From the NCBI GenBank assembly GCA_021774445.1, contig JAJFJA010000056.1, positions 18,347 through 82,346 on the forward strand: DNA of 64,000 nt, in the 5' to 3' direction. Shown in pieces: positions 1 through 54,643 of the stretch. The translations under genes and the position numbers were made by a program. The notes below the pieces were generated by a model, which did not search any database, was not told the origin of the DNA, and saw only the letters and a program-made list of their open reading frames with translations. Each line of letters starts with the position of its first letter. Within the stretch, counting starts at the first letter, position 1. Origin of the DNA: Alphaproteobacteria bacterium. GTDB taxonomy: Bacteria > Pseudomonadota > Alphaproteobacteria > UBA6615.

Positions 1-123
1 TGGCGGTGTGCCAGGCGGGCTGTGCGGACGCCATCGCGTGCGCCGGTGTGCTGCACTATGAAATGTCTTCGGTGCCCGAGTTGAAGCGCTGCGTCGGCGA
101 CGCCGGCTTTGAGGTGCGTCCAT
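1..123 (+). CDS. Partial (C-terminal) HisF-like imidazole glycerol phosphate synthase cyclase subunit paralog (WbuZ-type, glycan-associated)
   Basis: Frame ending in TGA at 121-123 translates ...ACAIACAGVLHYEMSSVPELKRCVGDAGFEVRP, which matches the HisF C-terminus. It lies directly upstream of the HisH-like and PseA-like genes. Confidence 0.5.
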
Positions 124-766
124 GATTGCCGTGGTCGACTATGATCGCGGCAACCTATTTAGCATCGCGCGGTCGCTCGCCCATGTCGGTGCGCCGTTCA
201 CGGTCACGCAGGATGGGGCGGAGATCCGTGCGGCGGATGGGATCATACTGCCCGGCGTCGGGGCGTTTGCCGACGCGATGGCGGCACTGAGGAGCCGCGA
301 CTTGGTTGAGACGTTGCGCGACGTTGCCGCGATCGGGACGCCGATGCTGGGCATCTGCCTCGGCATGCAGTTGCTGTTCAGTCGCAGCCAGGAATTCGGT
401 GAGACCAAAGGGCTCGATATTATTCGCGGCGAGGTGCGCAAGCTGCCGACGCAACGAGGCGGGATGCGCATTCCAAATGTGGGGTGGCGAAAATTGGATC
501 AGGCGCGGCCAGATCCGCTCTTGGAGACCGGTGAGCCGGCGCCGATGTTCTATTTCGTTCATTCGTTCGTGGCGTTCCCCGAGGATCGGGACAGAAGCGT
601 GGCGACCTTGCGGATCAATGGCTTGGATGCGGCGGTGATGGTCCGGCAAGGTGCCGTGGTTGGATGCCAATTTCACCCGGAGAAGAGCGGTCCGGCGGGG
701 CTCGCGTTGCTGCAGCGCTTTGCGGCGTTGCTCGGCGGGCAAAAGGGTGCCGTACGGGCGGCCTGA
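122..766 (+). CDS. hisH: HisH-like glutamine amidotransferase (imidazole glycerol phosphate synthase subunit H paralog, WbuY-type) partnered with a sugar amidotransferase
   Basis: 214 aa with class-I GATase motifs (GICLGMQLL catalytic Cys, HPE at the C-terminal end). ATGA overlap with the upstream hisF-like gene. Confidence 0.8.
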   Translation: MIAVVDYDRGNLFSIARSLAHVGAPFTVTQDGAEIRAADGIILPGVGAFADAMAALRSRDLVETLRDVAAIGTPMLGICLGMQLLFSRSQEFGETKGLDIIRGEVRKLPTQRGGMRIPNVGWRKLDQARPDPLLETGEPAPMFYFVHSFVAFPEDRDRSVATLRINGLDAAVMVRQGAVVGCQFHPEKSGPAGLALLQRFAALLGGQKGAVRAA

Positions 767-880
767 CCGTCTTAGTTCATCAAACATTAAGCATGATTCA
801 CCTAACTTGGGTGGCAAGTCCCACGGGTCACGGATAGCGCCCGCGGGGTTCGCCAGAAGCAACCGGTTGGGCCGCAATTC

Positions 881-2167
881 ATGTCGAACAAGATCGTTGA
901 AATCGATGGTAAGACTTTTGTCGAGGATCCGGACGATGGGCTCCTCGCGGTTGAGTACGGCCTGCCACCGAATGTCGAATTCTGTGAAAAATGCATTATC
1001 TCCAACCAGCGTGTCTCGCCTTCGGTGGTGACCAAGGACAAGCGGCATTCGAAGAAGGACACGATCCCGTTTCATGACGGCGTCTGCCAAGCCTGTCGGG
1101 TGGTGGCCAAGAAGGAGGAGATCGACTGGGAGGAGCGTGAACGCGGGCTAATCGCGCTGCTGGACCGTTTTCGGTCCCAAAACGGCTCGTATGATTGCCT
1201 GGTCCCGGGTTCCGGCGGGAAAGACTCGGTCTATCAATCTCATATTCTAAAAACCAAATACGGCATGAATCCGCTGACGGTGACGTGGGCGCCGCATATG
1301 TACACGGACGTCGGTTGGCGCAACTTCACCAATTGGATCCAGTTGGCCGGGCATGACAATTTCCTGTTTACGCCGGACGGCGTCGTCCATCGCAAGCTAG
1401 CTGAGCTGGCCTATCGGAACCTGTTGCATCCGTTCCAGCCCTTTGTCTACGGCCAGCGCCATTTCCCCATGCGGATGGCCAAGCGTATGGGGATTCCACT
1501 CATCTTCTACGGCGAGTGTCATGCGGAGTATGGCGCAACCGAGGGTGAGGACGAGGACTCATTGTTTCACCCGCGATATCTGACCGGCGACCCGGATGGA
1601 GATATTTTTATCAGCGGTCTGCCGATCGACGATCTTGCACAGCATGGGATCAATCGTGGGCAGTTGCAGGAATATATGCCGTTGGCTGCCGGTGAGGTCG
1701 AGGAAAGAGGGATTGAGGCCCACTTCCTGGGCTACTTCCTGAAATGGATTCCGCAGCAGAACTACTATTATGCCGTCGAGCACATGAATTTCGAACCGAA
1801 TACGCAGCGTACCGAGGGGTCGTACACGAAATACAACTCGCTTGATGACAAATTGGACGGCTTTCACTACTGGACCAGCCTGGTCAAGTTTGGGGTTGGG
1901 CGTTGCACGCATGAAGCGGGTCAAGAGCTGCGGCACGGCCATATCACGCGGGAAGAGGCGGTGGCGCTGGTGCATAAATACGACAGCGAATTCCCGCAGC
2001 GTTATTTCCAGGACGTGCTGGAATATTTGAGCATGGATAAGGACGAGTTCTTCGAAATAGCGGATAGCTTCCGTTCACCCCACCTGTGGCGAAAGACCGG
2101 CAATGGCTGGGTGCTGCGGCATGAGGTTCAGCAGCATCCCGACGTGCTCACCCGTGCCGTGGGGTGA
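881..2167 (+). CDS. pseA: N-acetyl sugar amidotransferase (PseA/WbuX family, PP-loop ATP pyrophosphatase); flagellin/LPS sugar acetamidino modification
   Basis: 428 aa with the PP-loop SGGKDS motif (LVPGSGGKDSVYQ). Length and context with the hisH/hisF-like pair are typical of acetamidino-sugar amidotransferases. Confidence 0.75.
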   Translation: MSNKIVEIDGKTFVEDPDDGLLAVEYGLPPNVEFCEKCIISNQRVSPSVVTKDKRHSKKDTIPFHDGVCQACRVVAKKEEIDWEERERGLIALLDRFRSQNGSYDCLVPGSGGKDSVYQSHILKTKYGMNPLTVTWAPHMYTDVGWRNFTNWIQLAGHDNFLFTPDGVVHRKLAELAYRNLLHPFQPFVYGQRHFPMRMAKRMGIPLIFYGECHAEYGATEGEDEDSLFHPRYLTGDPDGDIFISGLPIDDLAQHGINRGQLQEYMPLAAGEVEERGIEAHFLGYFLKWIPQQNYYYAVEHMNFEPNTQRTEGSYTKYNSLDDKLDGFHYWTSLVKFGVGRCTHEAGQELRHGHITREEAVALVHKYDSEFPQRYFQDVLEYLSMDKDEFFEIADSFRSPHLWRKTGNGWVLRHEVQQHPDVLTRAVG

Positions 2168-2930
2168 GCGTCAGGCCAGTGATTTTGGCAGCGTAATGTT
2201 GCGGTAGCCGCCGGCTGCCTTCTTTGCGCGCGACAGCGCGAAGTGTGTGCCAGTTTGCGTCGAGGAACTCAACAACGCGCGCCGGATCGCGGGCGCCGAG
2301 CGTGCGTAACCACCAGCCAATGGCCTTCTGGATAAACCATTCGGGGTCGTCGGCGTATTTCTCAGCCCAGCCCAACATACGTTCGGGATCTTTGCCCGGT
2401 GTCTTCGCCCAGGGCAGGGTGAAAATAAGAGCGGCGCGGCGAACCCAAAAATCTTTGTGGTTGGTCCATGGCTCGACGTCGTCCAACCGTTTCGGATCGT
2501 CGAGCAGGCATTTCCATGCCACGCGGGCGAGATTGTCTTCCAGGGCCCAGCCGTCGAGATCTTTCATCGAAGACAAGACCTGACGCCAAAGGCGCGGCGT
2601 CGGCGGGATGCGACGATGGGCCAGCAGGCGCGTTGCCGCGATCATGCAGTCCCAGACGCCGGAACGCCAGAGTTGCTCCGCAAGGCCGGAGATTTCCTGC
2701 TCCGAGAGCCGGCGGGCGAAAGACCTGACCACCTTGTCCACAAGCGGCGCCTTGACGCCCCAGTGGACGCGGCTTGATTTGTGATAGCGAACATCGAAGG
2801 CCGCGCGCTCCGCATCGGCGTGGGCCCTCATGGCAGTCTCGAATGCAACGACCTGGTCCATGACTACGGCCGTGCCCAGCTCGTCCACGAGTGGTGCCGA
2901 TCGTGGGCCTGGGGCGGGGGATTTAAGCAA
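2148..2930 (-). CDS. DNA alkylation repair (AlkD-like HEAT-repeat) family protein
   Basis: 260 aa containing FWVRRAALIF and WWLRTL motifs, which match the PF08713/AlkD-like repeat architecture. Confidence 0.55.
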   Translation of the reverse strand: MLKSPAPGPRSAPLVDELGTAVVMDQVVAFETAMRAHADAERAAFDVRYHKSSRVHWGVKAPLVDKVVRSFARRLSEQEISGLAEQLWRSGVWDCMIAATRLLAHRRIPPTPRLWRQVLSSMKDLDGWALEDNLARVAWKCLLDDPKRLDDVEPWTNHKDFWVRRAALIFTLPWAKTPGKDPERMLGWAEKYADDPEWFIQKAIGWWLRTLGARDPARVVEFLDANWHTLRAVARKEGSRRLPQHYAAKITGLTLTPRHG

Positions 2931-3092
2931 ATCTCAACCATGATTGGCGAATATCAGATCGACCGTCGTGGGCCGGGAAGTCGTCTTGGCGTGCGCGGGC
3001 GATATTGTACCGCCGCTAAGGGCGTCTGGCAGTCTGTTTTTGTGTTCGGGGGCGACGGGCCCGGTCGCCCTACACTGGAGCATGGTTCTTTG

Positions 3093-5135
3093 ATGATGGA
3101 TTCACCCCTAGACGCTCTGCCGTCGGTTGAGGTTCCAGCGGCTCCCGCCAGTATGTCAGCGCTGCCGGATAACCCGCAATTCGCGGCCAATATCGCTGCC
3201 TTCGAGACTCATGCACCCGATCTTCACGCGCAGCTTTCGCGCCTGACGGAACCCCTGTCCGAGCTGTTGATCTTGCCGAATGGCGGCGTCGACATGTCAC
3301 TACAGGGACAGCTTTTCTATGGTGCGGACGCCGTCGAATTTGCAGAGGCGCAGTTACAGGCATTCCTGAGTAATCCGCAGCGGTTGTTCTTTAATGAACC
3401 CGATCCGGCGAACATCGAGGGCGTCGCCGGCGACTATTGCCGGGCGCTTTGCGGGCGAATGGAAGCCGCCAGGATCGGGCTGAATCGAGAGTCTGTCGGC
3501 AAGAACTCGCACTTTACCATCGTCTTTGGGGCCGGATTGGGGCTTCATATCGAGCCGCTGATCCGGCACACGGAATGCAAGGTACTTCTCATCGTCGATC
3601 CGACGCTGGAGAATATCTTCCACTCTCTCTCGGTTGTCGACTGGGCGGGGATATTTTCTGAAGCGGACGCCAGTGGCCGGGAGATTATATTCATTGTCGA
3701 AGATTCCGTTGACGCGATCATCGCGACAGCGCGGACCGCCATTCGGGCCCGCAATCCGGCGCTCTTGGACGGTATTTATGTCTACGCCCACTATCACAAT
3801 TCACTCCTGAAGGGCGCCCGGGAGCGATTTCAACAAGAGTTGTTTCTGCATCTGTCGGGACTCGGGTTCTTCGAGGACGAGTTACGGATGATGGCCAACT
3901 CCTGCTCCAATCTTGGCCACGGACAGACGATGGCCATTAATCGGCAGATGCCGGTTCATGAAACGCCCTTGTTCATCGTCGGCTCCGGCCCGTCGATCGA
4001 CAAGGACCTCGATTTCATCAAGGAAAATCGCGACCGAGCGATACTTATGAGTATTGGTTCCGGATTGCGGGGCTTGCTGGCCCATGGTGTCAAGCCCGAC
4101 TACCATGTTGAGCTGGAGAACGAATTCACCACGGCCTACATCATCGGGGTCGTGGCCGAGGAATTCGACCTCGCGGGCATTACATTGATCGGCTCCTACA
4201 CAATTCAAAAAAGAGTTGCCGACCGTTTCGACGAGACGCTGTTCTATTTCCGCGAACGGACCAGCTCGAGCATGCTTTTTGGCGATGGGTTTCAGCAGGT
4301 TTCTCCAGCCGGACCGACGGTGGCAAACTCGGCGCTCTCGGTGGCAATCCGGTTCGGCTTCAAAGACGTCTATCTGTTCGGGATGGACATGGGGTCGAAG
4401 GATCAGAGCCTGTATCATTCCAGCGGGTCGGTTTATGGCGCCGGGGTGTTGAGTGAGCTTGACCGTCCCGATACGCCCATTCCAGGCAATTTCGGCGGGA
4501 CGGCGTTCGCAGAGAATGTCCTTATCTGGTGCCGGCATTCGTTCGAGAACATGCTGCGGGCGCATCGCTATATGCGCTGCACAAATTGCAGCGATGGGGC
4601 GAGGATCGCCAATGCGATTCCCCGACTTACCCGGACAATCGAGTTGACCAACGAGCCGGTGGACCGCGAGGCGTTCAAACGGCAGATCCGCGATGGCATC
4701 AGCGTGTTTTCGGAGGGTAGACGCCGGCAATCCTGGTATCTGCCGTTGCGCCGCTCCGAGGTGCAGGTGGTCGTTGACGCAGCGCTTGCGTGCTTGGACC
4801 GAGCCGCCGCGCAGGATGATCCGGATCTTGAGTGGATGCATGAGCTGGCCACGCTCGTGCGCTATGATCTGGGTGGCGAGCGCAGCACGGCACTCGCGTT
4901 TTTCTACGGCACCGTTCTGCTCATGTTGGGCTGTAGCTGGTGGTATGATCGGCGTCTTGCCGAGGCCGATCGGCGGACGGATTTTCGCAAGGCGGTCATC
5001 GCCGAGCTTCGGGCTTCGTTCGAGGGGATGGATCAACGGCTTAAGCAGCTGTATCAGGAAATCGAAGACTATTTCAACGGCGAGCGCGAGGTGATCGAAG
5101 CGCCGCACGAGACTGACCGGCCTGACCTACATTAG
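3093..5135 (+). CDS. maf: Motility accessory factor Maf (DUF115/MptE-like domain), putative flagellin nonulosonic-acid glycosyltransferase
   Basis: Central region carries the DUF115 hallmarks LFIVGSGPSIDKDLDFIK and VYLFGMDMGS. The track ORF begins at 2781 and overlaps the divergent gene, so I chose the ATG pair at 3093 (MMDSPL...). Confidence 0.7.
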   Translation: MMDSPLDALPSVEVPAAPASMSALPDNPQFAANIAAFETHAPDLHAQLSRLTEPLSELLILPNGGVDMSLQGQLFYGADAVEFAEAQLQAFLSNPQRLFFNEPDPANIEGVAGDYCRALCGRMEAARIGLNRESVGKNSHFTIVFGAGLGLHIEPLIRHTECKVLLIVDPTLENIFHSLSVVDWAGIFSEADASGREIIFIVEDSVDAIIATARTAIRARNPALLDGIYVYAHYHNSLLKGARERFQQELFLHLSGLGFFEDELRMMANSCSNLGHGQTMAINRQMPVHETPLFIVGSGPSIDKDLDFIKENRDRAILMSIGSGLRGLLAHGVKPDYHVELENEFTTAYIIGVVAEEFDLAGITLIGSYTIQKRVADRFDETLFYFRERTSSSMLFGDGFQQVSPAGPTVANSALSVAIRFGFKDVYLFGMDMGSKDQSLYHSSGSVYGAGVLSELDRPDTPIPGNFGGTAFAENVLIWCRHSFENMLRAHRYMRCTNCSDGARIANAIPRLTRTIELTNEPVDREAFKRQIRDGISVFSEGRRRQSWYLPLRRSEVQVVVDAALACLDRAAAQDDPDLEWMHELATLVRYDLGGERSTALAFFYGTVLLMLGCSWWYDRRLAEADRRTDFRKAVIAELRASFEGMDQRLKQLYQEIEDYFNGEREVIEAPHETDRPDLH

Positions 5136-5197
5136 GGCGCGGGACGTTATCCAAGATTTTTCGGTGAGGTCGTGGTTTAGCGGTTGCGCCGGCAGCC

Positions 5198-7177
5198 CTA
5201 TTGGACGTGTCGTTGGGTCCAGATCTGCTGAAAAGCGGATTCAAGGGATCTGGCGGTGGCACGGACATCGGCGAGCGGTGAGGCTGATACCCGACCCCTA
5301 AGGGTTTCTCGCGTGTCCGCAAGTGTGGACAGATCCAGCGCTATCAGACGACCGGTGTGCGCCAAATCGGCGGCATCCTGGCAGACCCATTCGCGGCACT
5401 CGGCGTCGATCAGGGTTGCGGCGGTTAGGCGACCGGCGAAGTTGTCGCGCGGTACGGTCAGGACGGGGACACCCATCCACAGAGCGCGACATGTCTCCGT
5501 GATGCACCCGCGATGGGCAACATCGAGGGCGATGTCTACGTGGTGATAGAACTCAAATTCATTGCTGAAGTTCTCGGCGGGATTGACGATGTCGATCCGA
5601 TCGCGCAGGCCGAGATGGGAGAAGGCTTCGTAGGTGCGAAGGACGCAGGTCTCGTCCAGTTCATGGCGGTTGTTGATGATGAGGCGCGCGTTGGGGATGG
5701 ATAGGAGCAACGGTCTCAGGGTGGCCGCAACATTGGTGTCGATTGCCGCAAGGTCGGCAACAATGCCGAAACTGACGTAGCCGAGGGCTGAGGCCGGCAG
5801 GGTATTGACCTCCGGCAGAATCGCCGGTGGGGCGTAACACGCCAAGGGGCCGCTGAGGTGGTGGACACGGCCGCCGCAAGTCGGCGGGACCTCCGGATCC
5901 GGCCAGGAGGCGGGCGTTGCGAGGAAATAGTCGTTGCCGACAGGGTGATCGTAGCCGAGCCAATTTGCGGTGGCCGGCACGGTGCTGCGGGCCAACGTCA
6001 ACAACCTGCAGCCGTCGCCATGGCCGGTAAGATCGACAGCGACGTCGATGGCGTCGCCGCGCAGGATCTCGGCGGCGGTTTCGTCGTCGACATCGACGAG
6101 ATCGGTCCAGCGGTCCGACAGGTGATTGATACGCTCGGATATCAAGTCGGATTGCTTGCCGTCGCTATAACAATAGATCTCGATCCGAGACCTATCATGG
6201 ACATCGAGGATCGGCGTCAGTAGGCGCGTGAGATCGTTGTCATGGAACTGGCCGCAGAAATATCCGACACGTAAGCGCCGATCTGTCTTGTCGGCGCTTG
6301 CCGACGGCGCCACCGGGCGGGCGAGGGAGGCCTTGCCGGTAAGGGGGGCGGCATGATCATGCCGCCATTCGGCATGGGCGCGCGCGACGTCCACACTGGA
6401 GGCGTTGGCGCTGCGGATCAGGTCTTGGAGGCGGCGGGAGCCAAGTTTGGCGTCCTGCGGTGCCATGGAGAGCACCGCGTTGTGGCAGGCCTGCGCTTCG
6501 TCGAAGCGCCCGGCGGTGGTCAGTGCGGCGGCGACCTCGGAGAGATCTTCGGGTGTCTGGTCGTGGCCATGCAGTAGGGCATGGCCGGCGGCGATAGCGC
6601 GTTCGACTTGGCCGGCGGCCCGAGATGCGCGGGCCAAAAGGCGCAGGGTGGCCGGATCGCCCGGGCTGATGTTCAGCTGCTTCTGGCAGGCCTCGATCGC
6701 GTCGTTCGGACGACGCTCGATGAGGAAGCGCTCGGCCCGATGGCGATAGAGATGGGGTTTCGATTCCTCGAGATTGGTTAGAAAATTGCGAAACTCGGCC
6801 GGCAGCAAGTCGGGGTATGTCGGGTGAGGCGGCTGAGTAGTCGCCAGTTTGGCATAGAAAAGACCTTCATTGACGTTGCCGACGCGGGCATAGGCCGCTG
6901 CCAGGGCCTGCGTGAAGTCACAGATATCCGGCTGTAGTTCGTGCGCTCGTTTGAGCAGAGGCAGGGCATGTGACGGCTCGTCCAGTTCAAAGCTGATAAG
7001 CCCGAGGACCAGAAATGCCTCGGCGCAGCCGGCTTCGGTCTTCAGCACGGTTTCGCAGGCAACGATGGCTTCTTCGACCCGCCCAGCCGCCAGGTGAGCC
7101 GTGGCTTGGTAGAGGGTCTCACGCAGAAATAAGGTCTTTCCGCCGGGGAGTGCCGCGTCGTCAATGTCGATGCTCAT
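5198..7177 (-). CDS. flmG: TPR-repeat protein with C-terminal GT41 (O-GlcNAc-transferase-like) glycosyltransferase domain; FlmG-like candidate flagellin glycosyltransferase
   Basis: 659 aa. The N-terminus has TPR repeats and the C-terminal roughly 350 aa resembles an OGT/SPINDLY-type GT-B domain (YFCGQFHDN, LWMGVPVLT). It sits between the Maf gene and the catabolic island. Confidence 0.65.
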   Translation of the reverse strand: MSIDIDDAALPGGKTLFLRETLYQATAHLAAGRVEEAIVACETVLKTEAGCAEAFLVLGLISFELDEPSHALPLLKRAHELQPDICDFTQALAAAYARVGNVNEGLFYAKLATTQPPHPTYPDLLPAEFRNFLTNLEESKPHLYRHRAERFLIERRPNDAIEACQKQLNISPGDPATLRLLARASRAAGQVERAIAAGHALLHGHDQTPEDLSEVAAALTTAGRFDEAQACHNAVLSMAPQDAKLGSRRLQDLIRSANASSVDVARAHAEWRHDHAAPLTGKASLARPVAPSASADKTDRRLRVGYFCGQFHDNDLTRLLTPILDVHDRSRIEIYCYSDGKQSDLISERINHLSDRWTDLVDVDDETAAEILRGDAIDVAVDLTGHGDGCRLLTLARSTVPATANWLGYDHPVGNDYFLATPASWPDPEVPPTCGGRVHHLSGPLACYAPPAILPEVNTLPASALGYVSFGIVADLAAIDTNVAATLRPLLLSIPNARLIINNRHELDETCVLRTYEAFSHLGLRDRIDIVNPAENFSNEFEFYHHVDIALDVAHRGCITETCRALWMGVPVLTVPRDNFAGRLTAATLIDAECREWVCQDAADLAHTGRLIALDLSTLADTRETLRGRVSASPLADVRATARSLESAFQQIWTQRHVQ

Positions 7178-7255
7178 GCCCCGACTTTAGGGCGTTATGC
7201 TTAACAGCGTATTACCGTCGTTATCGTACTAATTCAGTGCTTTAGCCCGGCTTTC

Positions 7256-8140
7256 TCAGTCCCCAAGGGGCTCGAACACGTCGCCCTCCAGAAGATTCAT
7301 TAGGTTATATTTCATGCGGCGCAGGTTCTGGAGAGCCGACTTGCCGAGGCAGTAGGCCAGACCGGTTGCGAGCAGATCGACCACAGCCATATAGGCGTAG
7401 CGTGACGCCGTCGGTGTCATGATGTCGGTCGTCTCAGGAATATGAATGGTAAGCGGGACGGTGCAGAGCTGGGAGAGGGCGGAGTCGGGCATGGTGATAC
7501 CAACGACCGGGACGCCGACCTGGGTGGCGATCTCGACACTTTGATTGACCTCCGCCGATCGTCCGGTAACGGATATGGCGATCACCGCGTCCTCCGGTCC
7601 CAAGGTGGAGGCGGCCATGCGCATGAGATAACCGTCGGAATATGCGGTGACGGCGAGACCCAGGCGGAAGAGCCGGTATTGGGCATCCTGGGCCACGGCG
7701 GTGGAGCCGCCACCGACACCGAAGATCATGATACGCTTGGCTTTCGCCAGGTAGGTGATCGCCCGTTCAACCTGCTCGGGATCGATCTGCCGTTCCACAC
7801 GATCGATGGCCTCGCGGGCTTTCTGCAGAATCGAGGCGCTGTAAGGCAGGGGAGAGCCTTCGCCGGTCGCGCCCGGCGGCTGTTGGAAATGACGGCTGTT
7901 GATGACGAGGCTTTGGGCTAGCTTGAACTTGAAATCCCGAACGCCCTCGCAGCCCAGGGTGCGGCAGAAGCGCGTCACCGTGGGTTCGCTGACCTCGGCG
8001 CGCTGAGCCAACTCGGAATTGCTGGCGTGAACGGCGAAGTCGACGTCGGCGAGAACGGCGTCAGCGACCCGTCGTTCGGCGGGGCGCAGGCTGCCCTTGG
8101 TCTCGCGCATATGGGAGATAATGTCTTGTACGGGATTCAT
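7256..8140 (-). CDS. RpiR/MurR-family transcriptional regulator (HTH_6 plus SIS domain)
   Basis: HTH (SNSELAQRAEVSEPTVTRFCRTLG) followed by a SIS domain (IMIFGVGGGSTAVAQDA). Start chosen at MNPVQDI (8138-8140) rather than the longer track ORF. Confidence 0.8.
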   Translation of the reverse strand: MNPVQDIISHMRETKGSLRPAERRVADAVLADVDFAVHASNSELAQRAEVSEPTVTRFCRTLGCEGVRDFKFKLAQSLVINSRHFQQPPGATGEGSPLPYSASILQKAREAIDRVERQIDPEQVERAITYLAKAKRIMIFGVGGGSTAVAQDAQYRLFRLGLAVTAYSDGYLMRMAASTLGPEDAVIAISVTGRSAEVNQSVEIATQVGVPVVGITMPDSALSQLCTVPLTIHIPETTDIMTPTASRYAYMAVVDLLATGLAYCLGKSALQNLRRMKYNLMNLLEGDVFEPLGD

Positions 8141-8379
8141 GGCTCGGTAATGTTGTCTCAAAGCATGGTGTGGTGTCGGTTGTGTCTTAGAGCAAAAATG
8201 TAGGAAAGTTACTAATAATCGCAAGAATTTTCCGTTGCATCAATGGAAGAGTCGACGGTAGTGGCCGACCTTTGGTTTGTGATGTAGGATATTTTCTTAA
8301 ATATGGGGAGCCGCAGCCGCTCGTGCGTGGCGCTGAGGACGGGTTGAATGTGTTATGTGCACGGGGTTCGTTTTCGGGG

Positions 8380-9213
8380 CTACTTGACGGCGCCCAGGGC
8401 GAGGCCGCGGACCAAGTAGCGTTGTAGCCAGCCGAAGATAATGGCGACGGGGACGGTTGCGAGTAGCGTCGCTCCCATGATGTGGTGCCACTCGACCGTG
8501 TAGCGGCCAGCGACCAGAGAGAAGATTTTGATGGGCAAGGTGTGGCTCTCCGCCGACCGTAGCATCGTCAAGGCGAGGACGAACTCGTTCCAGCTATTGA
8601 TGAAGGTGAAAATGGCGGTAACGACCATGGCCGGCACGGCGAGGGGCAGGAAGACGATGATAACCGTGCGGAAGCGACTGGCGCCCTCCAACCAAGCGGC
8701 TTCCTCAAGATCGCGGGGGATCGTGGCAAAGTAGCTCTGCAACATCCACACGGCGAAGGCGATGTTGAAAGCGGCGTAGATCATCACCAGGACATTCACC
8801 GAGTCCAGCAGGCCGACCGCGACGGAGAGGCGGAATAGGCCGAGGACAAGAACGATCGGGGACAGCATTTGGGTGATCAACAGGAATTGGCGGTAAGCGC
8901 CCTTGCCCTTGAATTCAAAACGCGACAGGGCATAGGCCGCCGGCACGGCGACGATCAGGGCGCCGAGCGTCGATGCGGTGCTGACATAAAGACTGTTGAG
9001 CAAAGCGCGGCCGAAGCCGGTCACCTGCCACATTTCAACGAAATTGGCCCAACGAATGGTACTTGGTAGCCACGCCGTGGGCGTCGCGAGGACCTCGTCG
9101 GCAGGTTTCACCGCCGTGAAGAACATGACCGCGAACGGGAACAGGATCACCACCATAAGCGGTGACAGCACGAGCCAACTGATAATACTTCGCCTAGCGC
9201 GTTTGCTCATCAC
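8380..9213 (-). CDS. Carbohydrate ABC transporter permease (MalG/UgpE-like, CUT1)
   Basis: 277 aa with six TM segments and an EAA motif ([16 protein letters not shown]). Confidence 0.85.
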
Positions 9214-10066
9214 GGATGACCATGCGGGTGTAGAGGAGAGTAATGGCGAGAAGAAGGGCGAACATGATGAGCGACACGACCGACGCCTCGCCCATCTTGC
9301 CGAAGCGGAAGGCCAGCTTATAGAGGTAGGTGACCAGGATGTCGGTCTGGTTGGCCGGGCCGCCTTGGGTCAGGACCCAGATGATGGGGAAGGAATTGAA
9401 GACGTAGATTACGTTCAAGACCAGCGCGATGTTGATGAAAGGGCGCATCAGGGGCAACGTCAGCGTGCGGAGCTGCTGCCAGGGACTGGCGCCGTCGACG
9501 CGCGCGGCCTCGTAGATATCGGCGGGTATCGACGACAGGCCGCCGAGGAATACCGTCACGGCGAACGGGATCGAAACCAAGATGCCGATAGCGATCTGCA
9601 TGGGAAATGCGGTGGCGCCGGAGGCGAGCCAGACAATGGGTTCGCCGATGATGCCAAGGTCCTGCAGGGTCTTGTTGAGGAGGCCGAACTGACCGTTCAG
9701 CGACCAGCGCCAAACAATGGCGGTCATGGTCAGAGAGACCGACCAGGGCAACATGATGATAACCCGCGCGAGGCCGCGCCCAGCAAAATCCTCGTTGAGG
9801 ATGAGGGCGATGGGGAATGAGAGCAAGATGGTGCCGCCGACGACACCAACGGTCCAAAGGACCGTGCGCCATAGAGACTGATAGAACAGGCTATCGTCGA
9901 GGACGGCGAGCAGATTTTCGAAACCGCTAAAGTAACGGATCTGGCCGAAGCGGTTGACGTTGTGGGTGGCGAGCTGGCTCAAGTCCCACAGTGGGAACAA
10001 GATAATAAACGCCGCGAGAAAGAAGCTGGGGAGGATCAGATAGGCCGGAGCCAGTCGCGATGACAT
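9194..10066 (-). CDS. Carbohydrate ABC transporter permease (MalF/UgpA-like, CUT1)
   Basis: 290-aa polytopic permease with an EAA-like loop ([21 protein letters not shown]). It overlaps the downstream permease by 20 nt. Confidence 0.85.
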
Positions 10067-10156
10067 GCGCTGCCAGTCTGTGGCGGTGGACCAATTTCAG
10101 CGTCGCTCGTGGGGGGCGTCTGCACGTCCCCCACGGCGATCATACAGGCTGTCGCG

Positions 10157-11401
10157 CTATTTCCCGAGAATTCGGTTGGCCTCGCTGGCGGCCGTGGCGA
10201 GAGCCTCGGCCGGCTCGGCTTCTCCGAGATAGATTCTCTGCAAGGCGCGCACGGTGGTATCGGCGACTTCTTCCCAACCGGCGATAACCGGTGCGAAGCG
10301 GGCATCCGGCAATACGGCAGAGAAGACCTTCAGATCCTCATCGTTTTGGAAATGATCTTCCTGAGACACAGCCACGTTGACCGGTAGGAAGCCTTCGGTG
10401 CGGGTGAATTTCGAGCGCCAGTCGTCCTGGAAAATGAAATCCAGGAAGGCCCAGGCATCATCCTTCACCTCGGAGTTATCGAACATGACGATGGAGTCGG
10501 TGACGCCATATGTCCCGTTGGCGCCGCCGGACGGAATGGCAGCCACGCCATAGTTAAGGTCCGGTGCTTCGGTCTTGATCTGGCTCGATAGGAAAGGTGC
10601 GGTGATCATCATCCCGACACGGCCTTCCTTGAACAGGTTCTGCACGTCCTCACGGGTGTTGGCCGTGACGCCGGGCTGGGTAGAGCCGTCGTCGATGAGC
10701 GATTTGTATAATGTCGCCGCCTTCAAAGCCGCGTCGCTGTCGACGCCGCTGGAGCCATCATCGTTGAGGATCGAGCCGCCGAACGCCCACATGGCATAGT
10801 AGAAATAGACGTCGGTCTCGATCTCATTGCCCTGGAGACCGTAACCAAAGGTGTTGTCACCGAGGGCGGAGATCGCCTTGGCCGTCGTTACAAGATCATC
10901 CCAGGTCGCGGGCGGGCCATCGACATTGGCCTGGGCCAATAGATCCTTGTTGTAGTACATGGCGCGCGCCGAAGCGGCGATCGGCAGTCCGTAGGTCTTG
11001 CCGCCCATCACCGACGGTGACAGGAAGGTGGCGATGAAGCGGTTGCGGAAGTCGTCGTCCATGAAGGAGTCGAGCTCGGACACAACGTCCTGTTCGACGA
11101 AATCCACGAGCCAACGGGTGCCGATGATGGCCAAGTCGGAGTTGGCATTGCCGGAGATGTCGGTGGTCAGTTTTTGCAACAAGACATCCCAGGGGACGAC
11201 TTCGATCTGAATGTCGGTGTCAGGATTCGCCGCCTCAAAGGCCGCCGCCGCCTCTTGGAAATACGGTCCGGTCGCCGAGCTGTATTCGGCAACCGTCACA
11301 CGCACTTCGGCTGCTTGTGCCGTGGCAATCCCGCCCAACAGCAGCGCTGCCGCCGACGCGGCAGTAATTTGGGCCGCGAGGCGCCCATTTAATGGCATCA
11401 T
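10157..11401 (-). CDS. ABC transporter extracellular solute-binding protein (family 1, sugar)
   Basis: 414 aa with an N-terminal signal peptide (AAALLLGGIATAQA). Size and composition are typical of a CUT1 substrate-binding protein, and it heads the minus-strand transporter operon. Confidence 0.8.
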   Translation of the reverse strand: MMPLNGRLAAQITAASAAALLLGGIATAQAAEVRVTVAEYSSATGPYFQEAAAAFEAANPDTDIQIEVVPWDVLLQKLTTDISGNANSDLAIIGTRWLVDFVEQDVVSELDSFMDDDFRNRFIATFLSPSVMGGKTYGLPIAASARAMYYNKDLLAQANVDGPPATWDDLVTTAKAISALGDNTFGYGLQGNEIETDVYFYYAMWAFGGSILNDDGSSGVDSDAALKAATLYKSLIDDGSTQPGVTANTREDVQNLFKEGRVGMMITAPFLSSQIKTEAPDLNYGVAAIPSGGANGTYGVTDSIVMFDNSEVKDDAWAFLDFIFQDDWRSKFTRTEGFLPVNVAVSQEDHFQNDEDLKVFSAVLPDARFAPVIAGWEEVADTTVRALQRIYLGEAEPAEALATAASEANRILGK

Positions 11402-11636
11402 TCGTTGTCCTCCCGGTATTCTATGACATCTAGATAGACGAATTGACTGTTATATCTATGAAAGTCTCTAACATTCTGAGCTGCTACGCAACCGTAAATG
11501 CGGCGCTTTTCTGCTCGCCAGCGGGCGCTGACATCGTGTGAAGGGCGCCCAGATAACGGAAAAACTGGCGGCGGGAGAACGTATCTAGCCGAAACACAGG
11601 TTTTGGGTTACTTTCCTACATACGAATGGAGGGCGA

Positions 11637-12815
11637 ATGTACCGAGCGCTTTACGCCTATGCTTGGGATCTCGCAGAAGGAACCGGCGATAGCGTCGCCG
11701 AGACCTTCTTGGGGTTGGGCGTCAATACGATCACCCTGGCTTGCGCCTACCATGCCGGAAAATTCATCCGGCCGCATGGCGCCGCCGGCAAAGTTTACTT
11801 TCCCGAAGATGGCACGGTCTATTTCAGGGCGCGACCGGAGCGGTACGGCAAAATCAAGCCGGTAATCAGTGCGTTAAGTCAGAATCGGGATGTGTTACAA
11901 GAACTGGTCGGGCGCGACGATATCCAGGCGAACGCGTGGGTCGTGCTGCTGCACAATACGCGACTGGGGTCGGCCTATCCCGATGCCGTGGTGCGCAATG
12001 CCTTTGGCGACGGCTACCGATACAGCCTGTGTGCGGCCAATCCCGATGTTCGAGCCTACGCCACCGCGCTTTGTGCCGATTTGAGCGATCGCTACGGAGT
12101 TTCCGGTCTTAGTCTGGAGACGCCGGGATTTCTGCCTTTTCGGCACGGGTTTCACCACGAATTTTCGCTGACGCCGATGAATGCGTGGCAGGAGACGTTG
12201 TTGGCGTTGTGCTTTTGCGATCATTGCAAGGCCGGTGCCGGTGGCGCCGGCATCGATGTGGGTGGCGTACAGTCACGGGTCGCCCAGGCGATCAGCGCCT
12301 ATCTCGAAAGCGACGTCGCGCCGGAGCCGGATATGGCGGCGGCCTGGCTGCTTGCCGATATCGTGGCGGACGGCGACCTGACGGCCTTTCTGCGATGGCG
12401 CTGCGATCAGGTCACCGCGTTAATTCGCGAGATTCGCGATGCCGTTCGCGATGATGCGACCATTGCGGTGATCCCGTCGGTGAATCGGCCAAGCAGCGCG
12501 GCCTGGCTCGAAGGCAGTGACCTGGAGGCGTTGGCGCAAACCGCCGATGTGCTTGAGGTGCCGCTTTACGAGCCGAGCCCGGAGCGGGTGCGAACCGATC
12601 TTTGGGACGTGCGGCGGCGGGTCGGTACCGCCGCGCGTCTGCGCGCGATATTGCGTCCCGGCCCACCCGACGCCAGCAGCGGGGCACAGGTCAAAGCGTG
12701 CGTCGACGCCGTGCGTGCGGCTGGGGTTTCCGACATAGCCTTCTACAACTACGGGCATTTGCGCGAGAGTTCGCTGCATTGGATGCGCGATGCGCTGGCA
12801 GGCGAGGGAAGCTAG
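11637..12815 (+). CDS. Hypothetical protein (unrecognised, possibly a TIM-barrel-like sugar-modifying enzyme)
   Basis: 392-aa ORF with coding-like composition and no motif I can assign. It is the first gene of the plus-strand operon divergent from the ABC transporter genes. Confidence 0.5.
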   Translation: MYRALYAYAWDLAEGTGDSVAETFLGLGVNTITLACAYHAGKFIRPHGAAGKVYFPEDGTVYFRARPERYGKIKPVISALSQNRDVLQELVGRDDIQANAWVVLLHNTRLGSAYPDAVVRNAFGDGYRYSLCAANPDVRAYATALCADLSDRYGVSGLSLETPGFLPFRHGFHHEFSLTPMNAWQETLLALCFCDHCKAGAGGAGIDVGGVQSRVAQAISAYLESDVAPEPDMAAAWLLADIVADGDLTAFLRWRCDQVTALIREIRDAVRDDATIAVIPSVNRPSSAAWLEGSDLEALAQTADVLEVPLYEPSPERVRTDLWDVRRRVGTAARLRAILRPGPPDASSGAQVKACVDAVRAAGVSDIAFYNYGHLRESSLHWMRDALAGEGS

Positions 12816-13594
12816 TGAAACGGTTTGACGACAAGGTGGTGGCGGTCACCGGTGGTGCGGGCGGGATCGGCCGGGCGCTCTGTGCGCGGTTCGCGGCGGA
12901 GGGTGCCCGGGTAGCGGTGGTCGACCGGGACGAAGCCGCCGCAAGGGAGGCAGCAGGCGAGATTGCGGGGGCGATGGCGGTTGCTCTCGACGTGGCGGAT
13001 GCGGACGGTGTCGCGGCAGGCTTTGGCGATGTGGATGCGACACTCGGGCCGGTCGATATCTTGGTGAATAATGCCGGGTTCGTACTCAAGCCAACTCTGG
13101 CAACCATGACGCCCGACGATTGGCAAGCGGAGGTTCAGGGTAATCTTGGCGGCGCCTATCATTGTGCGCGCGTGGTGATACCCGGCATGCAAACAAGGCG
13201 GTCGGGTTGCATCGTCAATATCAGTTCGGTCAACGGACTGCAGGTGTTGGGCCATCCAGCGTATAGCGCTGCCAAGGCCGGGCTGATCAACTTTACGAAG
13301 TCGTTGGCAGTAGAATATGGGCCGGATGGCATTCGGGCGAACGCGGTATGTCCGGGAACGGTGGCGACGCCGGTCTGGTCGGAGCGGGCAGCGCGGCGGC
13401 CGGAGGTTTTCGAGCGGTTGAAACAATGGTATCCGCTCGGCCGAATTGTCGAGCGCGAAGATGTGGCGAAGGCGGTTGCGTTTTTGGCCAGTGACGATGC
13501 GAGCGCGATCACCGGTGCGGTGCTGCCGGTCGATTGCGGGCTGAGCGCGGGCAACCGGGTGATGGCGTCGGAACTGACCTTGGAAGAGTATTAG
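12815..13594 (+). CDS. Short-chain dehydrogenase/reductase (SDR)
   Basis: GTG start overlapping the upstream stop (TAGTG). Rossmann motif VTGGAGGIGRA is present, along with a catalytic YSAAK (YxxxK) motif. Confidence 0.8.
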   Translation: MKRFDDKVVAVTGGAGGIGRALCARFAAEGARVAVVDRDEAAAREAAGEIAGAMAVALDVADADGVAAGFGDVDATLGPVDILVNNAGFVLKPTLATMTPDDWQAEVQGNLGGAYHCARVVIPGMQTRRSGCIVNISSVNGLQVLGHPAYSAAKAGLINFTKSLAVEYGPDGIRANAVCPGTVATPVWSERAARRPEVFERLKQWYPLGRIVEREDVAKAVAFLASDDASAITGAVLPVDCGLSAGNRVMASELTLEEY

Positions 13595-13610
13595 GGAGCG
13601 GAGGGCAGCC

Positions 13611-14678
13611 ATGGCGACCGTCAATCTGCGCGGTCTCGAGAAGAGCTACGGTGCGACCAAGGTGGTGCATGGCGTCGATCTGGAAATCGCCCATGGCGAA
13701 TTCGTCGTTCTGGTGGGGCCGTCCGGCTGCGGGAAATCGACCTTGCTGCGGATGATTGCCGGGTTGGAGGATATTACCGGCGGTGAGCTCTATATCGGCG
13801 GTGCGTTGGCGAACGCGCTGCCGCCGCAAAAACGCAATATCTCCATGGTGTTTCAGAGCTATGCGCTTTATCCGCATATGTCGACCTATAAGAACATCGC
13901 CTACGGACCGCGTATCCGTCATGAGCCGAGCGACGAGATCGACGGCAAGGTGAAGCAAGCGGCCGGTATCCTCAATCTTTTCGATTATCTCGACCGCCTG
14001 CCGAGACAATTGTCCGGCGGACAGCGACAGCGGGTGGCGATGGGACGGGCGATCGTGCGCGATCCCGCGGTGTTTCTGTTCGACGAACCGTTGTCCAACC
14101 TGGACGCAAAACTACGGGTGCAAATGCGCACCGAGATCAGGTCGTTGCATCAGCGTCTCGGCACAACCGTCGTATATGTGACACACGACCAGATCGAGGC
14201 AATGACGATGGCCGACCGTATCGTCGTGCTCGACCATGGCCGGGTGCAGCAGGCCGGACCGCCGCTGGAGCTCTACGACCATCCGGCCAATCTGTTCGTG
14301 GCCGGATTCCTGGGCTCGCCGGCGATGAATCTAATACCGGGGGTCGTCCGCCATGCCGACGGGGCGGTGCATGTCGAAATGAGCGATGGTGCGCGCATCG
14401 ACTTGGCGGGGCAGGATGCCGAAGAGGGCCGGTCGGTAATGCTTGGCGTGCGGCCGGAAGACTATCACTTGACCGGGACCGAGCAGGGGGCCGAGGCGGT
14501 GGTCAGTCTGGTGGAGCCGACCGGCGCCGATACCAATGTCTATGGTCAATTGGGCGGGGCCGAGTTCAGCGCGGTGTTTCACGAACGGCACCCGTTCAAG
14601 CCCGGCGACAAAATACGTCTGCGGCCGGACCCTGATCGGCTGCATCTTTTCGACGCAGATTTAGGACACCGGCTTTAA
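13611..14678 (+). CDS. Sugar ABC transporter ATP-binding protein (MalK/UgpC-like)
   Basis: Walker [10 protein letters not shown], signature LSGGQRQRV, Walker [11 protein letters not shown], plus a C-terminal MalK-type regulatory domain. Confidence 0.9.
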
Positions 14679-14703: not shown

Positions 14704-16164
14704 ATGAGCATGATGGATGAGACGGCGGAGACATATGATGTGATATTCCGCGGCGCGCAAATCGTCGACGGAACGGGCGCGGCGCCGTTTGCCGGCGATC
14801 TGGCGATTCGTGGCGACCGGATCGCGGTCATCGCCGCCGCGGGTACGCTAAGCAGGGCCAAGCAAGATATCGACGCAAGCGGACAGGCGATTTCGCCCGG
14901 GTTTATCGACACGCACACCCATGACGACAACGCCGTCCTGATCGCGCCTGAGATGACGCCGAAGGTCAGCCAGGGCGTGACCACCGTGGTCGTGGGCAAT
15001 TGTGGCGTCAGCTTGGCGCCGACCGTGCTGCCGGGGGATCCACCGCCGCCGTTGAACCTACTGGGCAAGCGGGACGATTTTCGCTTCGAGGGTTTTGCCG
15101 ATTATGTGACAGCGGTCGAGCAGGCGCGGCCGGCGGTCAATGTGGTCGGCTTGGTCGGGCATAGCAGTCTGCGCGTCAGCGCCATGGAGCGGGTCGACCG
15201 GCGGGCCAGCACGGCCGAGATTGCGGTGATGCAGGAAGCGTTGGCCGAAGGGCTCGCGGCCGGTGCGGCGGGGTTCAGCACCGGTTTGTACTACAAACCA
15301 AACATGGCGGCCGACATGGACGAAGTCGTGGCCCTGGCGGCGCTGGTCGGCGCCGCCGGCGGCGTGTATGCGACGCATATGCGCGATGAGCATGTGCATG
15401 TCCTCGAGTCCCTCAATGAAACATTCGAGACGGCGCGGCGCGCCGGCACGACGGTGGTCATCTCGCACCATAAATGCTCGGGTCGGGAAAATTGGGGGCG
15501 CAGCCGCGAGACATTGCCGGTCATTGCCGCGGCCGGCGAGAGACAGCCGGTCGGTCTCGATGCCTATCCCTACGCCGCCGGCTCGACGGTGCTCGATGTC
15601 GATCACGTCGACGCGGAAATCCCCATCCTGATCACCTGGTCCGACGCGGTGCCGGAGGCGACCGGGCGCTATCTTGCCGACCTTGCGAAAGACTGGGGCT
15701 GCGATGTGTTCGAGGCGGCGCGCCGTCTGGATCCGGCCGGGGCGATTTATTTTCAGATGGCCGAGGAGGATGTGCGGCGCATCCTGGCGTTTCCCGGAAC
15801 GATGATCGGCTCAGACGGGCTGCCCCATGACAAGCATCCGCATCCACGGTTGTGGGGTACCTTCCCACGGGTAATCGGCCACTATGGCCGGGAGGTCGGG
15901 TTGTTTCCGCTGGAGGTGGCGGTCCATAAGATGACCGGCCTGGCGGCGGAACGGTTCGGTCTGAAGGATCGTGGCGTGCTGCGGGAGGGCGCGTATGCGG
16001 ATCTTGTGATGTTCGATCCGGTGGCGATTATCGACACCGCGACTTTCGAAGCGCCGGTGCAACCGGCACACGGCATATCTTTGGTGATGGTAAATGGTGT
16101 CGCCGCCTGGCGAGACGGCGCCGCCGGAGATCGAGCGGGCCGGTTTTTGCGCCGTGGGTCGTGA
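14704..16164 (+). CDS. N-acyl-D-amino-acid deacylase family amidohydrolase (D-aminoacylase-like)
   Basis: 486 aa with the metal-binding DTHTHDD motif near the N-terminus, an amidohydrolase fold and a C-terminal beta domain. Confidence 0.75.
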   Translation: MSMMDETAETYDVIFRGAQIVDGTGAAPFAGDLAIRGDRIAVIAAAGTLSRAKQDIDASGQAISPGFIDTHTHDDNAVLIAPEMTPKVSQGVTTVVVGNCGVSLAPTVLPGDPPPPLNLLGKRDDFRFEGFADYVTAVEQARPAVNVVGLVGHSSLRVSAMERVDRRASTAEIAVMQEALAEGLAAGAAGFSTGLYYKPNMAADMDEVVALAALVGAAGGVYATHMRDEHVHVLESLNETFETARRAGTTVVISHHKCSGRENWGRSRETLPVIAAAGERQPVGLDAYPYAAGSTVLDVDHVDAEIPILITWSDAVPEATGRYLADLAKDWGCDVFEAARRLDPAGAIYFQMAEEDVRRILAFPGTMIGSDGLPHDKHPHPRLWGTFPRVIGHYGREVGLFPLEVAVHKMTGLAAERFGLKDRGVLREGAYADLVMFDPVAIIDTATFEAPVQPAHGISLVMVNGVAAWRDGAAGDRAGRFLRRGS

Positions 16165-17071: not shown

Positions 17072-17130
17072 TTTTGGCACCTTTCCATTCTGAACGTCGA
17101 GGCCGACCGAGCCGGCTCAAGGGTCATAGA

Positions 17131-18248: not shown

Positions 18249-18307
18249 GATTTCTGTCCTCATTCTGAAGTGGCTATTACAAGAGCTTCTGCTCCGACGA
18301 GGACTGC

Positions 18308-20206: not shown

Positions 20207-20266
20207 ACCTTGGCTCCTCATTCTGAAGGACTATGTGACGGAGCTTCTGCTCCGGCCCGACTTGCT

Positions 20267-30294: not shown

Positions 30295-30336
30295 GTTCAA
30301 TTGAAAACAAACATTGCCATCAACAGGAGGAAAATC

Positions 30337-31329: not shown

Positions 31330-31410
31330 CAAGAGTTGGCCTCACGCTCGGCGAGCGTGGGGCCCTTCTTTGGCCATAGAGATCGGCGTCAAATCGTTGT
31401 TGGGAGGTGA

Positions 31411-32856
<1,446 letters not shown>

Positions 32857-51175: not shown

Positions 51176-51224
51176 TGCGTAGACCTTTATGCAGCCGTGG
51201 CGATACGACCCGGGGGCGCCGCGT

Positions 51225-52466: not shown

Positions 52467-52594
52467 AGCTACCTCAATGAGGGGGCAACTAAATTGTCGA
52501 AAGTCGCTTGCATCAGGTATATATTATGTTTCTCGACACATGGTGTCTTTAATGTTAACACAGGATATTAAATTGGTGGAGTGGTCCGCGGCCG

Positions 52595-54570: not shown

Positions 54571-54643
54571 CGACAAAACAGGAAAGCAGCGATAGAGTTC
54601 GGTTCTGGCTAACAAGAATGACAATCTTCACGGAGGAAGAAAG

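Follow-up and report, generated by a model that had tools for sequence, protein, structure and literature searches.

Flagellin islands for nonulosonic acids (NulOs), the Maf glycosyltransferases and acetamidino machinery are already known, and genes of glycosyltransferase family 41 (GT41) have been noted in flagellin islands before. To our knowledge, Maf and FlmG are the only flagellin transferase classes reconstituted so far. In this study, a 64,000-nucleotide stretch of contig JAJFJA010000056.1 from an alphaproteobacterium (the window) was analysed, with emphasis on its positions 1–7177. This region encodes a Maf and a convergent protein in which tetratricopeptide repeats (TPRs) precede a GT41-fold domain, called here the TPR-GT41 protein. 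The best reading of region 1–7177 is the modification-and-transfer end of a flagellin NulO island within an alphaproteobacterial flagellar gene cluster. In the literature searched, a rare GT41 offshoot with a rebuilt donor site appears to be new. The same applies to its locked place next to flagellin and NulO genes, where a Maf of the Magnetospirillum type usually accompanies it.

FlmG of Caulobacter crescentus and Brevundimonas subvibrioides (PMC7591256; bioRxiv 10.1101/2022.03.25.485807) is the best functional analogy for the TPR-GT41 protein. FlmG has 596 residues; its N-terminal TPR domain (the first 313 residues) binds flagellin, its C-terminal domain is of the GT-B type, and its organism has no Maf (PMC7591256). 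FlmG was reported to be confined to Caulobacterales. It has in common with the TPR-GT41 protein the two-domain build of N-terminal TPRs and C-terminal GT-B. Both are described as cytoplasmic and are encoded with flagellin genes and genes for pseudaminic (Pse) or legionaminic (Leg) acid.

For Maf, the comparison was made with Magnetospirillum magneticum AMB-1 Maf (5MU5), which is built of Maf_flag10_N, an MptE-like GT-A core and a helical C-terminal domain. The NulO synthase of M. magneticum AMB-1 behaved as PseI. In Shewanella oneidensis, the gene downstream of maf-2 encodes GlfM, a four-helix bundle of 89 residues, which is a precedent for a Maf that requires a separate, cis-linked flagellin-binding partner (bioRxiv 10.1101/2023.12.03.569772).

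The GT41 family includes human and bacterial O-GlcNAc transferase (OGT; TtOGT 5DJS, XcOGT 2JLB) and plant SPINDLY (7Y4I, 8DTF), which have in common a TPR superhelix and a two-lobed GT-B domain. Their donors are uridine diphosphate (UDP)-GlcNAc or guanosine diphosphate (GDP)-fucose, and no such donor pathway was linked to the island studied here. GT41/COG3914 enzymes recur in the flagellin glycosylation islands of Enterobacteriaceae and are predicted to glycosylate flagellin (De Maayer & Cowan 2016, PMC4875605). Compared by description, they differ from the present protein in that they are predicted to be of the GlcNAc type and were not reported together with Maf or NulO pathways. The window has counterparts of all three components of the WbuX/WbuY/WbuZ system (WbpG/HisH/HisF-type), namely a PP-loop amidotransferase, a glutaminase and a HisF-like cyclase. 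Here they belong to a flagellin NulO island and not to an O-antigen cluster. The genes of the putative glycosylation system in the window are as follows.

3–122, + strand (frame +3): last 39 codons of a HisF/WbuZ-like cyclase subunit; the 5′ part lies beyond the window start.
122–766, + strand: HisH/WbuY-like glutamine amidotransferase subunit (PF00117 GATase, E = 1e-18; TIGR01855).
881–2167, + strand: WbuX-type PP-loop N-acetyl-sugar amidotransferase (TIGR03573; SGGKDS).
3093–5135, + strand: Maf of 680 aa, candidate cytidine monophosphate (CMP)-nonulosonate:flagellin O-glycosyltransferase (Maf_flag10_N and MptE-like).
5198–7177, − strand: TPR and GT41-fold protein of 659 aa (TPR families and PF13844, E = 2.5e-22).
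16250–17080, 17430–18263, 18467–19288 and 19361–20221, − strand: four tandem flagellin genes, the presumed acceptors (Flagellin_N and Flagellin_C in each).

The 659-aa product of the TPR-GT41 gene is exactly the database representative P0001, and its TPR families lie at residues ~20–245. The best matches among solved structures, found by sequence, were TtOGT of Thermobaculum (5DJS, E = 1.6e-45) and SPINDLY (E = 2e-35), followed by human OGT. An AlphaFold2 model built from 24 homologs had a mean pLDDT of 89.2. In a Foldseek search, the model matched SPINDLY with E = 1.3e-31 and 5DJS with a target-normalised TM-score of 0.88 and a root-mean-square deviation of 3.0. The product is a GT41-fold protein with preceding TPRs, and it is without the metazoan intervening domain.

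The homologs of the subfamily (P0001–P0020) were 40–70% identical and about 650–680 aa long, whereas canonical GT41 matches had at most 33% identity. About 20 clusters of the subfamily are known. An exhaustive HMMER search with the subfamily profile gave 21,495 proteins at E <1e-30. Among the best 150 of these 21,495, giant multi-module canonical GT41 proteins predominated and only six single-module clusters were of the subfamily type, four of them new, which provides a rough estimate of rarity only. By sequence comparison, the subfamily is a small GT41 offshoot separate from canonical GT41, and because so few clusters of its type stood among the best 150 matches, it can be regarded as rare.

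The donor site was compared in a joint alignment of 17 subfamily members and 7 canonical GT41 relatives. The Lys equivalent to TtOGT K341 ('FNNxxK') was present in 7/7 canonical relatives and 0/17 subfamily members, and the same counts were obtained for the 'SPDFxxH' His of the N-lobe. The structure 5DJS is a K341M mutant, and its residue M341 aligned with Ala478 of the window protein. The phosphate Thr-Thr motif, 'NGTTTTCE' in the canonical relatives, was changed to 'xxxxxE(T/N)CR' in the subfamily. Three residues were fixed in the subfamily at the former donor site: D475 in 17/17 members, E561 in 16/17 and R564 in 13/17. Four further members found with HMMER repeated this pattern. In the numbering of the published human OGT structures, the corresponding residues would be H498, K842, H901, T921, T922 and D925; the K341 equivalence alone was taken from tool output.

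As judged from this alignment, the Lys (TtOGT K341, human OGT K842), the His (human OGT H498) and the Thr-Thr that hold UDP or GDP in OGT and SPINDLY have been lost from the subfamily, and Asp, Glu and Arg are fixed instead. Mean pairwise identity was ~50% in the GT lobes against 47% in the TPR arm, so the GT lobes were at least as conserved. Because the GT lobes are conserved and D475, E561 and R564 are fixed at the former donor site, the donor pocket looks rebuilt and conserved rather than decayed. An 'HP' motif of the GT-B sialyltransferase type, seen in 'GYPHP', was dropped as a candidate, as it was not conserved across the subfamily.

The initial annotation had called the TPR-GT41 protein FlmG-like and had taken Maf and FlmG to be present together. 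A FlmG ortholog was recovered from metagenome contigs by using the FlmG_N primer of the eLife supplement. It is encoded at L011:1692-3488, has 598 aa, starts with MSRKSAL and adjoins a GNAT gene. It was validated by five primer-derived peptides at the expected positions, the four beyond FlmG_N with one or two substitutions. Among them were FHIPGTR (FQIPGVR in the FlmG primers) at 301, SDQDLKG (SGQDLRG) at 309 and AKEALGV (AKEELGV) at 494. On these peptide matches, the L011 protein can be identified as a FlmG ortholog. The contigs L013 and L014 were rejected as FlmG sources, since they gave chance or unusable primer matches.

BLASTP of the FlmG ortholog against the window TPR-GT41 protein found no similarity (best E = 1.7), and hhalign aligned the two in the TPRs only (28–178 with 100–262, probability 97%). 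The subfamily GT-domain profile against the FlmG C-terminal domain gave an hhalign probability of 0.09% (E = 0.58), whereas the control against a canonical GT41 module gave 100% (E = 1.1e-65). The FlmG ortholog had no match to Pfam PF13844 and matched solved structures through its TPR region only. By these comparisons, the catalytic domains are without detectable homology, and the TPR-GT41 protein resembles FlmG in architecture, not in family. FlmG is described as the sole flagellin transferase of Maf-less Caulobacterales, whereas in the window a Maf adjoins the TPR-GT41 gene, as it usually does in the subfamily, and the relatives are labelled Rhodospirillales or Kiloniellales. The name FlmG-like could not be upheld, and with it fell the presence of both known classes.

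The Maf open reading frame (ORF) had been listed from position 2781. The true start is the ATG at 3093, and the 680-aa product matches a database protein verbatim. Maf_flag10_N (PF20157, E = 5.6e-45) and MptE-like/DUF115 (PF01973, E = 3.3e-31) were both above gathering scores, and the motifs IVGSGPSID and GMDMG were present. Residues 30–665 aligned over the full length with residues 12–654 of M. magneticum Maf (5MU5) at E = 6.6e-83, with the same three-part build, and the flagellar/NulO neighbourhood is also shared. The gene is encoded with flagellins in the window, and genes for NeuB and a CMP-transferase are adjacent to its counterparts in the orthologous loci L005, L015 and L009. On sequence evidence, the window Maf has every computable feature of the MAF_flag10/DUF115 Maf class, and from its full-length orthology to M. 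magneticum Maf it probably transfers CMP-nonulosonate to flagellin Ser/Thr. It differs from M. magneticum Maf in that it, like the Mafs of six further loci, is paired with a TPR-GT41-like gene; the literature searched describes no partner of this kind for the Maf class.

The gene neighbourhood was compared in ten subfamily loci: the window, L001, L005/6, L015, L020, L017, L009/10, L007/8, L016 and L019. The relatives of the window are labelled Rhodospirillales, Kiloniellales or simply Alphaproteobacteria metagenome-assembled genomes (MAGs). A flagellar or NulO locus was found in 10/10 loci, down to 40% identity. A flagellin gene stood directly upstream of the TPR-GT41 gene in 7/10. A Maf or MptE-like gene was within the readable flank in 7/10 and was the convergent immediate neighbour in six (the window, L001, L005, L015, L020 and L017), with a gap of −13 to 92 bp (62 bp in the window). 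In three loci (L007/8, L009/10 and L019), neuB followed immediately downstream in the same direction. The canonical GT41 relative P0043 (Paraburkholderia) was considered as a FlmQ-like flagellar gene and was rejected, its locus being not flagellar. Linkage to flagellin and NulO genes characterises the remodelled subfamily, because all ten subfamily loci are flagellar or NulO loci and the locus of canonical P0043 is not.

The gene order of the relatives shows what adjoins the region. L001 is an Alphaproteobacteria MAG with a WbuX 85% identical to that of the window, and its order is cysC, sat, a pyruvate-kinase-like gene, a CMP-transferase-like gene, hisF, hisH, wbuX, an antisense AlkD-like gene, maf and the convergent TPR-GT41 gene. 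In L005, where the TPR-GT41 protein is 67% identical, the order is flgI...flgK, flgL, a gene for a 279-aa protein, three flagellins, an amidohydrolase, TPR-GT41, the convergent maf, wbuX, hisH, hisF, neuB, a CTP_transf_3 gene, DUF6898, the pyruvate-kinase-like gene, sat and cysC. The order of L015 is that of L005 from flgI to the CMP-transferase gene (flagellins, amidohydrolase, TPR-GT41, Maf, wbuX, hisH, hisF, neuB). The glycosylation genes are contiguous with the flagellin array in L005 and L015; therefore the 7.4-kb metabolic block of the window can be read as an insertion. By this comparison, the window region is the distal end of an island that was ancestrally contiguous with the flagellin array.

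The pairing extends to a truncated form of Maf. At L017:12091-13290 (− strand), the partner of the TPR-GT41 gene encodes a 399-aa MptE-like protein without Maf_flag10_N. In the more distant L019 (5580–14019), the genes are TPR-GT41, neuB, a GSCFA-family protein, a 418-aa protein, hisH and hisF, and the locus also carries a PglD-like acetyltransferase, an epimerase and a B12-binding radical SAM enzyme. The 418-aa protein had no Pfam match and occupies the WbuX position upstream of hisH–hisF. The acetamidino machinery recurs with the subfamily even at this locus, where no Maf is in reach.

The flagellins are 9 kb from region 1–7177, with an RpiR regulator, a sugar ABC transporter and further metabolic genes in between, and not next to it as had been stated. 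The copies were 70–72% identical to the first, and the mean column identity was 86%. Their middles were Ser/Thr-rich and common to all, with one 9-aa insertion in one copy. The four flagellins had been credited with differing central domains; these are nearly identical, and the idea of paralog-specific glycosylation built on them loses its basis. The HisF/HisH-like pair with its PP-loop amidotransferase, the Maf-type protein immediately downstream, which profile searches and the 5MU5 match confirmed, and the convergent TPR and OGT-like protein, whose glycosyltransferase fold agreed with 5DJS and SPINDLY, were all described correctly in the initial annotation. Its general picture also held, namely that of an island for flagellin glycosylation that combines acetamidino machinery with a Maf and with a second, non-homologous protein of TPRs and a glycosyltransferase fold, the latter tied to flagellin by synteny in every locus compared.

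The acetamidino genes were identified as follows. The translation of the HisF-like fragment ends in GADAIACAGVLHYEMSSVPELKRCVGDAGFEVRP before the stop codon (final residues GFEVRP), and the stop overlaps the hisH start as ATGA. In a tblastn search, the fragment matched the C-terminal end of the HisF/WbuZ-like gene of L001 at 79% identity; the gene is full length in both L001 and L005. The full-length L001 protein scored 290 bits with TIGR00735 and 276.1 bits with WbuZ TIGR03572 (cut-off 299.7), both slightly under the cut-offs. The HisH-like protein scored 194.3 bits with TIGR01855 (cut-off 105.4) and has a 78% identical ortholog at the equivalent position of L001. The WbuX-type enzyme scored 318.7 bits with TIGR03573 ('N-acetyl sugar amidotransferase'; cut-off 203.2), carries SGGKDS in its translation and has orthologs 85–86% identical in L001 and L005.

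The rest of the 64-kb window was searched for pse and leg genes, including a NulO synthase, and none was found. The content upstream of the window was inferred from the relatives L001 and L005, and the sugar type from relatives at 43–86% identity. NeuB (TIGR03569) was above the cut-off of 399.65 in three relatives, with 444.7, 441.4 and 445.0 bits. L009 had a LegC-family aminotransferase at 430.4 (cut-off 420), and it also carries a LegB-like dehydratase, a NeuC/LegG-type hydrolysing epimerase and a CBS-domain nucleotidyltransferase. The PseI, PseC and PseB profiles were all well under their cut-offs on the pathway genes of the relatives, PseI in all three NeuB loci. The results indicate that the sugar pathway of the relatives is of the legionaminic/neuraminic (Leg/Neu) type and not pseudaminic. 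The initial annotation had left the sugar as pseudaminic or legionaminic; the second is favoured and the first is not. Since the genes of the relatives are of the Leg/Neu type and the WbuX/HisH/HisF set is present, the product is most likely a Leg5Am7Ac-like (acetamidino-legionaminic) donor. In this the island differs from M. magneticum AMB-1, whose synthase behaved as one of the other type.

In the two closest relatives (L001:624-3711 and L005:19149-21959), genes for adenosine 5′-phosphosulfate (APS) kinase, ATP sulfurylase, a pyruvate-kinase-like protein and DUF6898 precede the NulO genes. Their presence suggests a supply of 3′-phosphoadenosine 5′-phosphosulfate, possibly for a sulfated glycan, and/or of phosphoenolpyruvate for the NeuB condensation.

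A working scheme can be proposed for the island. HisH would release ammonia from glutamine, and the HisF-like subunit and WbuX would use it to form an acetamidino group from an N-acetyl group on the sugar. In the cytoplasm, Maf would then attach the sugar, activated with CMP, to Ser/Thr residues of the four short flagellins. The TPR-GT41 protein may bind flagellin with its TPR arm, as the TPRs of FlmG and Maf-1 do. Its GT-B domain may be a second, donor-switched transferase that most plausibly either draws on a CMP-NulO donor or modifies flagellin that already bears NulO. This transferase and Maf would act in parallel, each on its own sites or with its own sugar variant. This overall account, an acetamidino-Leg-type flagellin glycosylation island with Maf and a second, donor-switched transferase, was held with middling confidence.

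A donor-switched, active enzyme was favoured for three reasons. The pocket seems to have been rebuilt and conserved, not decayed; the lost residue holds the β-phosphate, which is not found in CMP-sugars; and in some loci (L007/8 and L019) the gene is joined to neuB while no Maf is near. A wider proposal is more doubtful and was made tentatively. Besides Maf and FlmG, the clade lacking K341 may represent a third class of flagellin NulO transferase that evolved independently, in which the OGT/SPINDLY scaffold was retooled from a nucleoside-diphosphate to a CMP-sugar donor. In most hosts it would act in parallel with Maf, so that the same flagellins would be modified with two specificities, for site or for sugar.

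Several points weigh against the account with a second transferase. The window itself is without a NulO synthase, so that the sugar type rests on the relatives at the identities given above. A dead enzyme would explain equally well that the GT41 catalytic Lys and His are lost. Nor is the donor readable from sequence. No Maf was found within the readable flank in 3/10 loci (L007/8, L016 and L019), a count that covers flanks and not whole genomes. Neither strict co-occurrence nor independence of Maf and the TPR-GT41 gene is established from such flanks.

The main rival takes the protein for a non-catalytic pseudo-glycosyltransferase that serves as a flagellin-recognition or specificity factor for the adjacent Maf, comparable to GlfM, the partner of Shewanella Maf-2, or to the TPR domain that is fused to Maf-1. 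FlmG and Maf-1 bind flagellin through their TPRs, and certain Mafs require a partner for flagellin binding (bioRxiv 10.1101/2023.12.03.569772; PMC7591256). Such a role would fit the missing catalytic Lys and His and the missing phosphate-binding Thr-Thr, the convergent position right beside Maf at short gaps in six loci, and the absence of a GlfM-like small ORF beside maf in the window. The candidate partner here would be a convergent 659-residue TPR-GT41-fold protein, whereas GlfM is far smaller and encoded downstream of its maf. A mere binding factor is harder to reconcile with GT lobes conserved as much as the TPR arm or more, and with invariant charged residues (D475, E561 and R564) exactly at the former donor site. 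It also has to accommodate L007/8 and L019, where neuB comes directly after the gene and no Maf is in the readable flank, and a Maf of the M. magneticum type already has its own N- and C-terminal domains. This rival was considered unlikely, though it is the strongest of the four.

It is less likely still that the protein is an ordinary OGT/SPINDLY-type enzyme that transfers GlcNAc, hexose or deoxyhexose from a UDP- or GDP-sugar onto flagellin, so that the glycan would contain two sugars. The similarity to GT41 is strong in sequence and fold, and the recurrence of GT41/COG3914 enzymes in enterobacterial flagellin islands (PMC4875605) agrees with this idea. However, the diphosphate- and nucleotide-binding residues are gone from the subfamily and kept in all 7 canonical relatives. 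No second set of nucleotide-sugar biosynthesis genes recurs in the islands; the NulO genes alone do.

A gene unrelated to flagellin, whose product modifies another cytoplasmic protein and whose position is coincidental, is very improbable. The 9 kb of metabolic genes between the gene and the flagellins in the window would suit it, but the place beside flagellin and NulO genes is kept in 10/10 loci, down to 40% identity. That the protein is a FlmG-type NulO transferase, in an organism with both known classes, is scarcely credible, since the common domain order and the flagellar/NulO neighbourhood are set against a refutation at the homology level (BLASTP E = 1.7; hhalign 0.09% against a 100% control; alignment in the TPRs only), a FlmG without PF13844 and with TPR-only structure matches, and its reported confinement to Caulobacterales.

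The other features of the window are described below.

2148–2930, − strand: AlkD-like DNA alkylation repair gene (PF08713, E = 7.5e-51), with its start probably near 2861.
7256–14678: RpiR/HexR regulator, sugar ABC transporter and other metabolic genes, between the TPR-GT41 gene and the amidohydrolase.
14704–16164, + strand: amidohydrolase, a tentative member of the island (NF006560, E = 3.5e-49, under the cut-off).
20475–21314, − strand: gene for a 279-aa protein without a significant Pfam domain, with the flagellin array on one side and flgL on the other.

The AlkD-like gene, which the initial annotation did not mention, is antisense and wedged between wbuX and maf, and its 3′ end overlaps the wbuX stop by 20 nt. 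A 76% identical copy stands at the equivalent place in L001, and L005 keeps a 47-aa remnant. The gene looks like a passenger insertion outside the glycosylation function, which the island seems to be either gaining or losing. A promoter and terminator scan of 1–8400 gave counts not above those of shuffled sequence.

The 7.4-kb block at 7256–14678 also carries a 392-aa ORF, a short-chain dehydrogenase and an ABC ATPase. Metabolic cassettes break the flagellar cluster repeatedly, here and also at 27394–32856 and 50057–56587. An amidohydrolase of the Amidohydro_3 type (476–486 aa) lies between the flagellin array and the TPR-GT41 gene at L005:8430-9860 (78%) and L015:7580-9025 (60%), and in L015 a polysaccharide deacetylase stands beside it. 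It may be a sugar or flagellin-glycan deacylase of the island.

Beyond the flagellins, the 279-aa gene is followed by flgL, flgK and flgI. A protein of 276–280 aa is always encoded between flgL and the first flagellin, at 37–65% identity and without a significant Pfam domain (window 20475–21314, − strand; L005:4189-5028; L015:5588-6430; L016:6948-7778; L017:4143-4985). The remaining window contains flgH, flgA, flgG, flgF, fliM, a cheZ-like gene, motB and fliP, with metabolic cassettes in between. A 1145-aa protein with scattered TPR matches is encoded at 43886–47323 (+ strand), after the MotB-like gene and ahead of fliP; it is another large TPR protein of the flagellar cluster.

These results address the question of how cytoplasmic transferases choose flagellin and sugar, in a field where some Mafs need further partners. 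The locus defines a compact and testable pair, a Magnetospirillum-type Maf and a TPR-GT41-fold protein. If the latter is active, the OGT scaffold can switch donor class, and a new enzyme would be at hand for glyco-engineering resembling protein sialylation. If it is inactive, it would be a new kind of Maf specificity factor. Either way, FlmG-like is a tempting but wrong annotation for TPR-GT41 genes in alphaproteobacterial flagellar loci.

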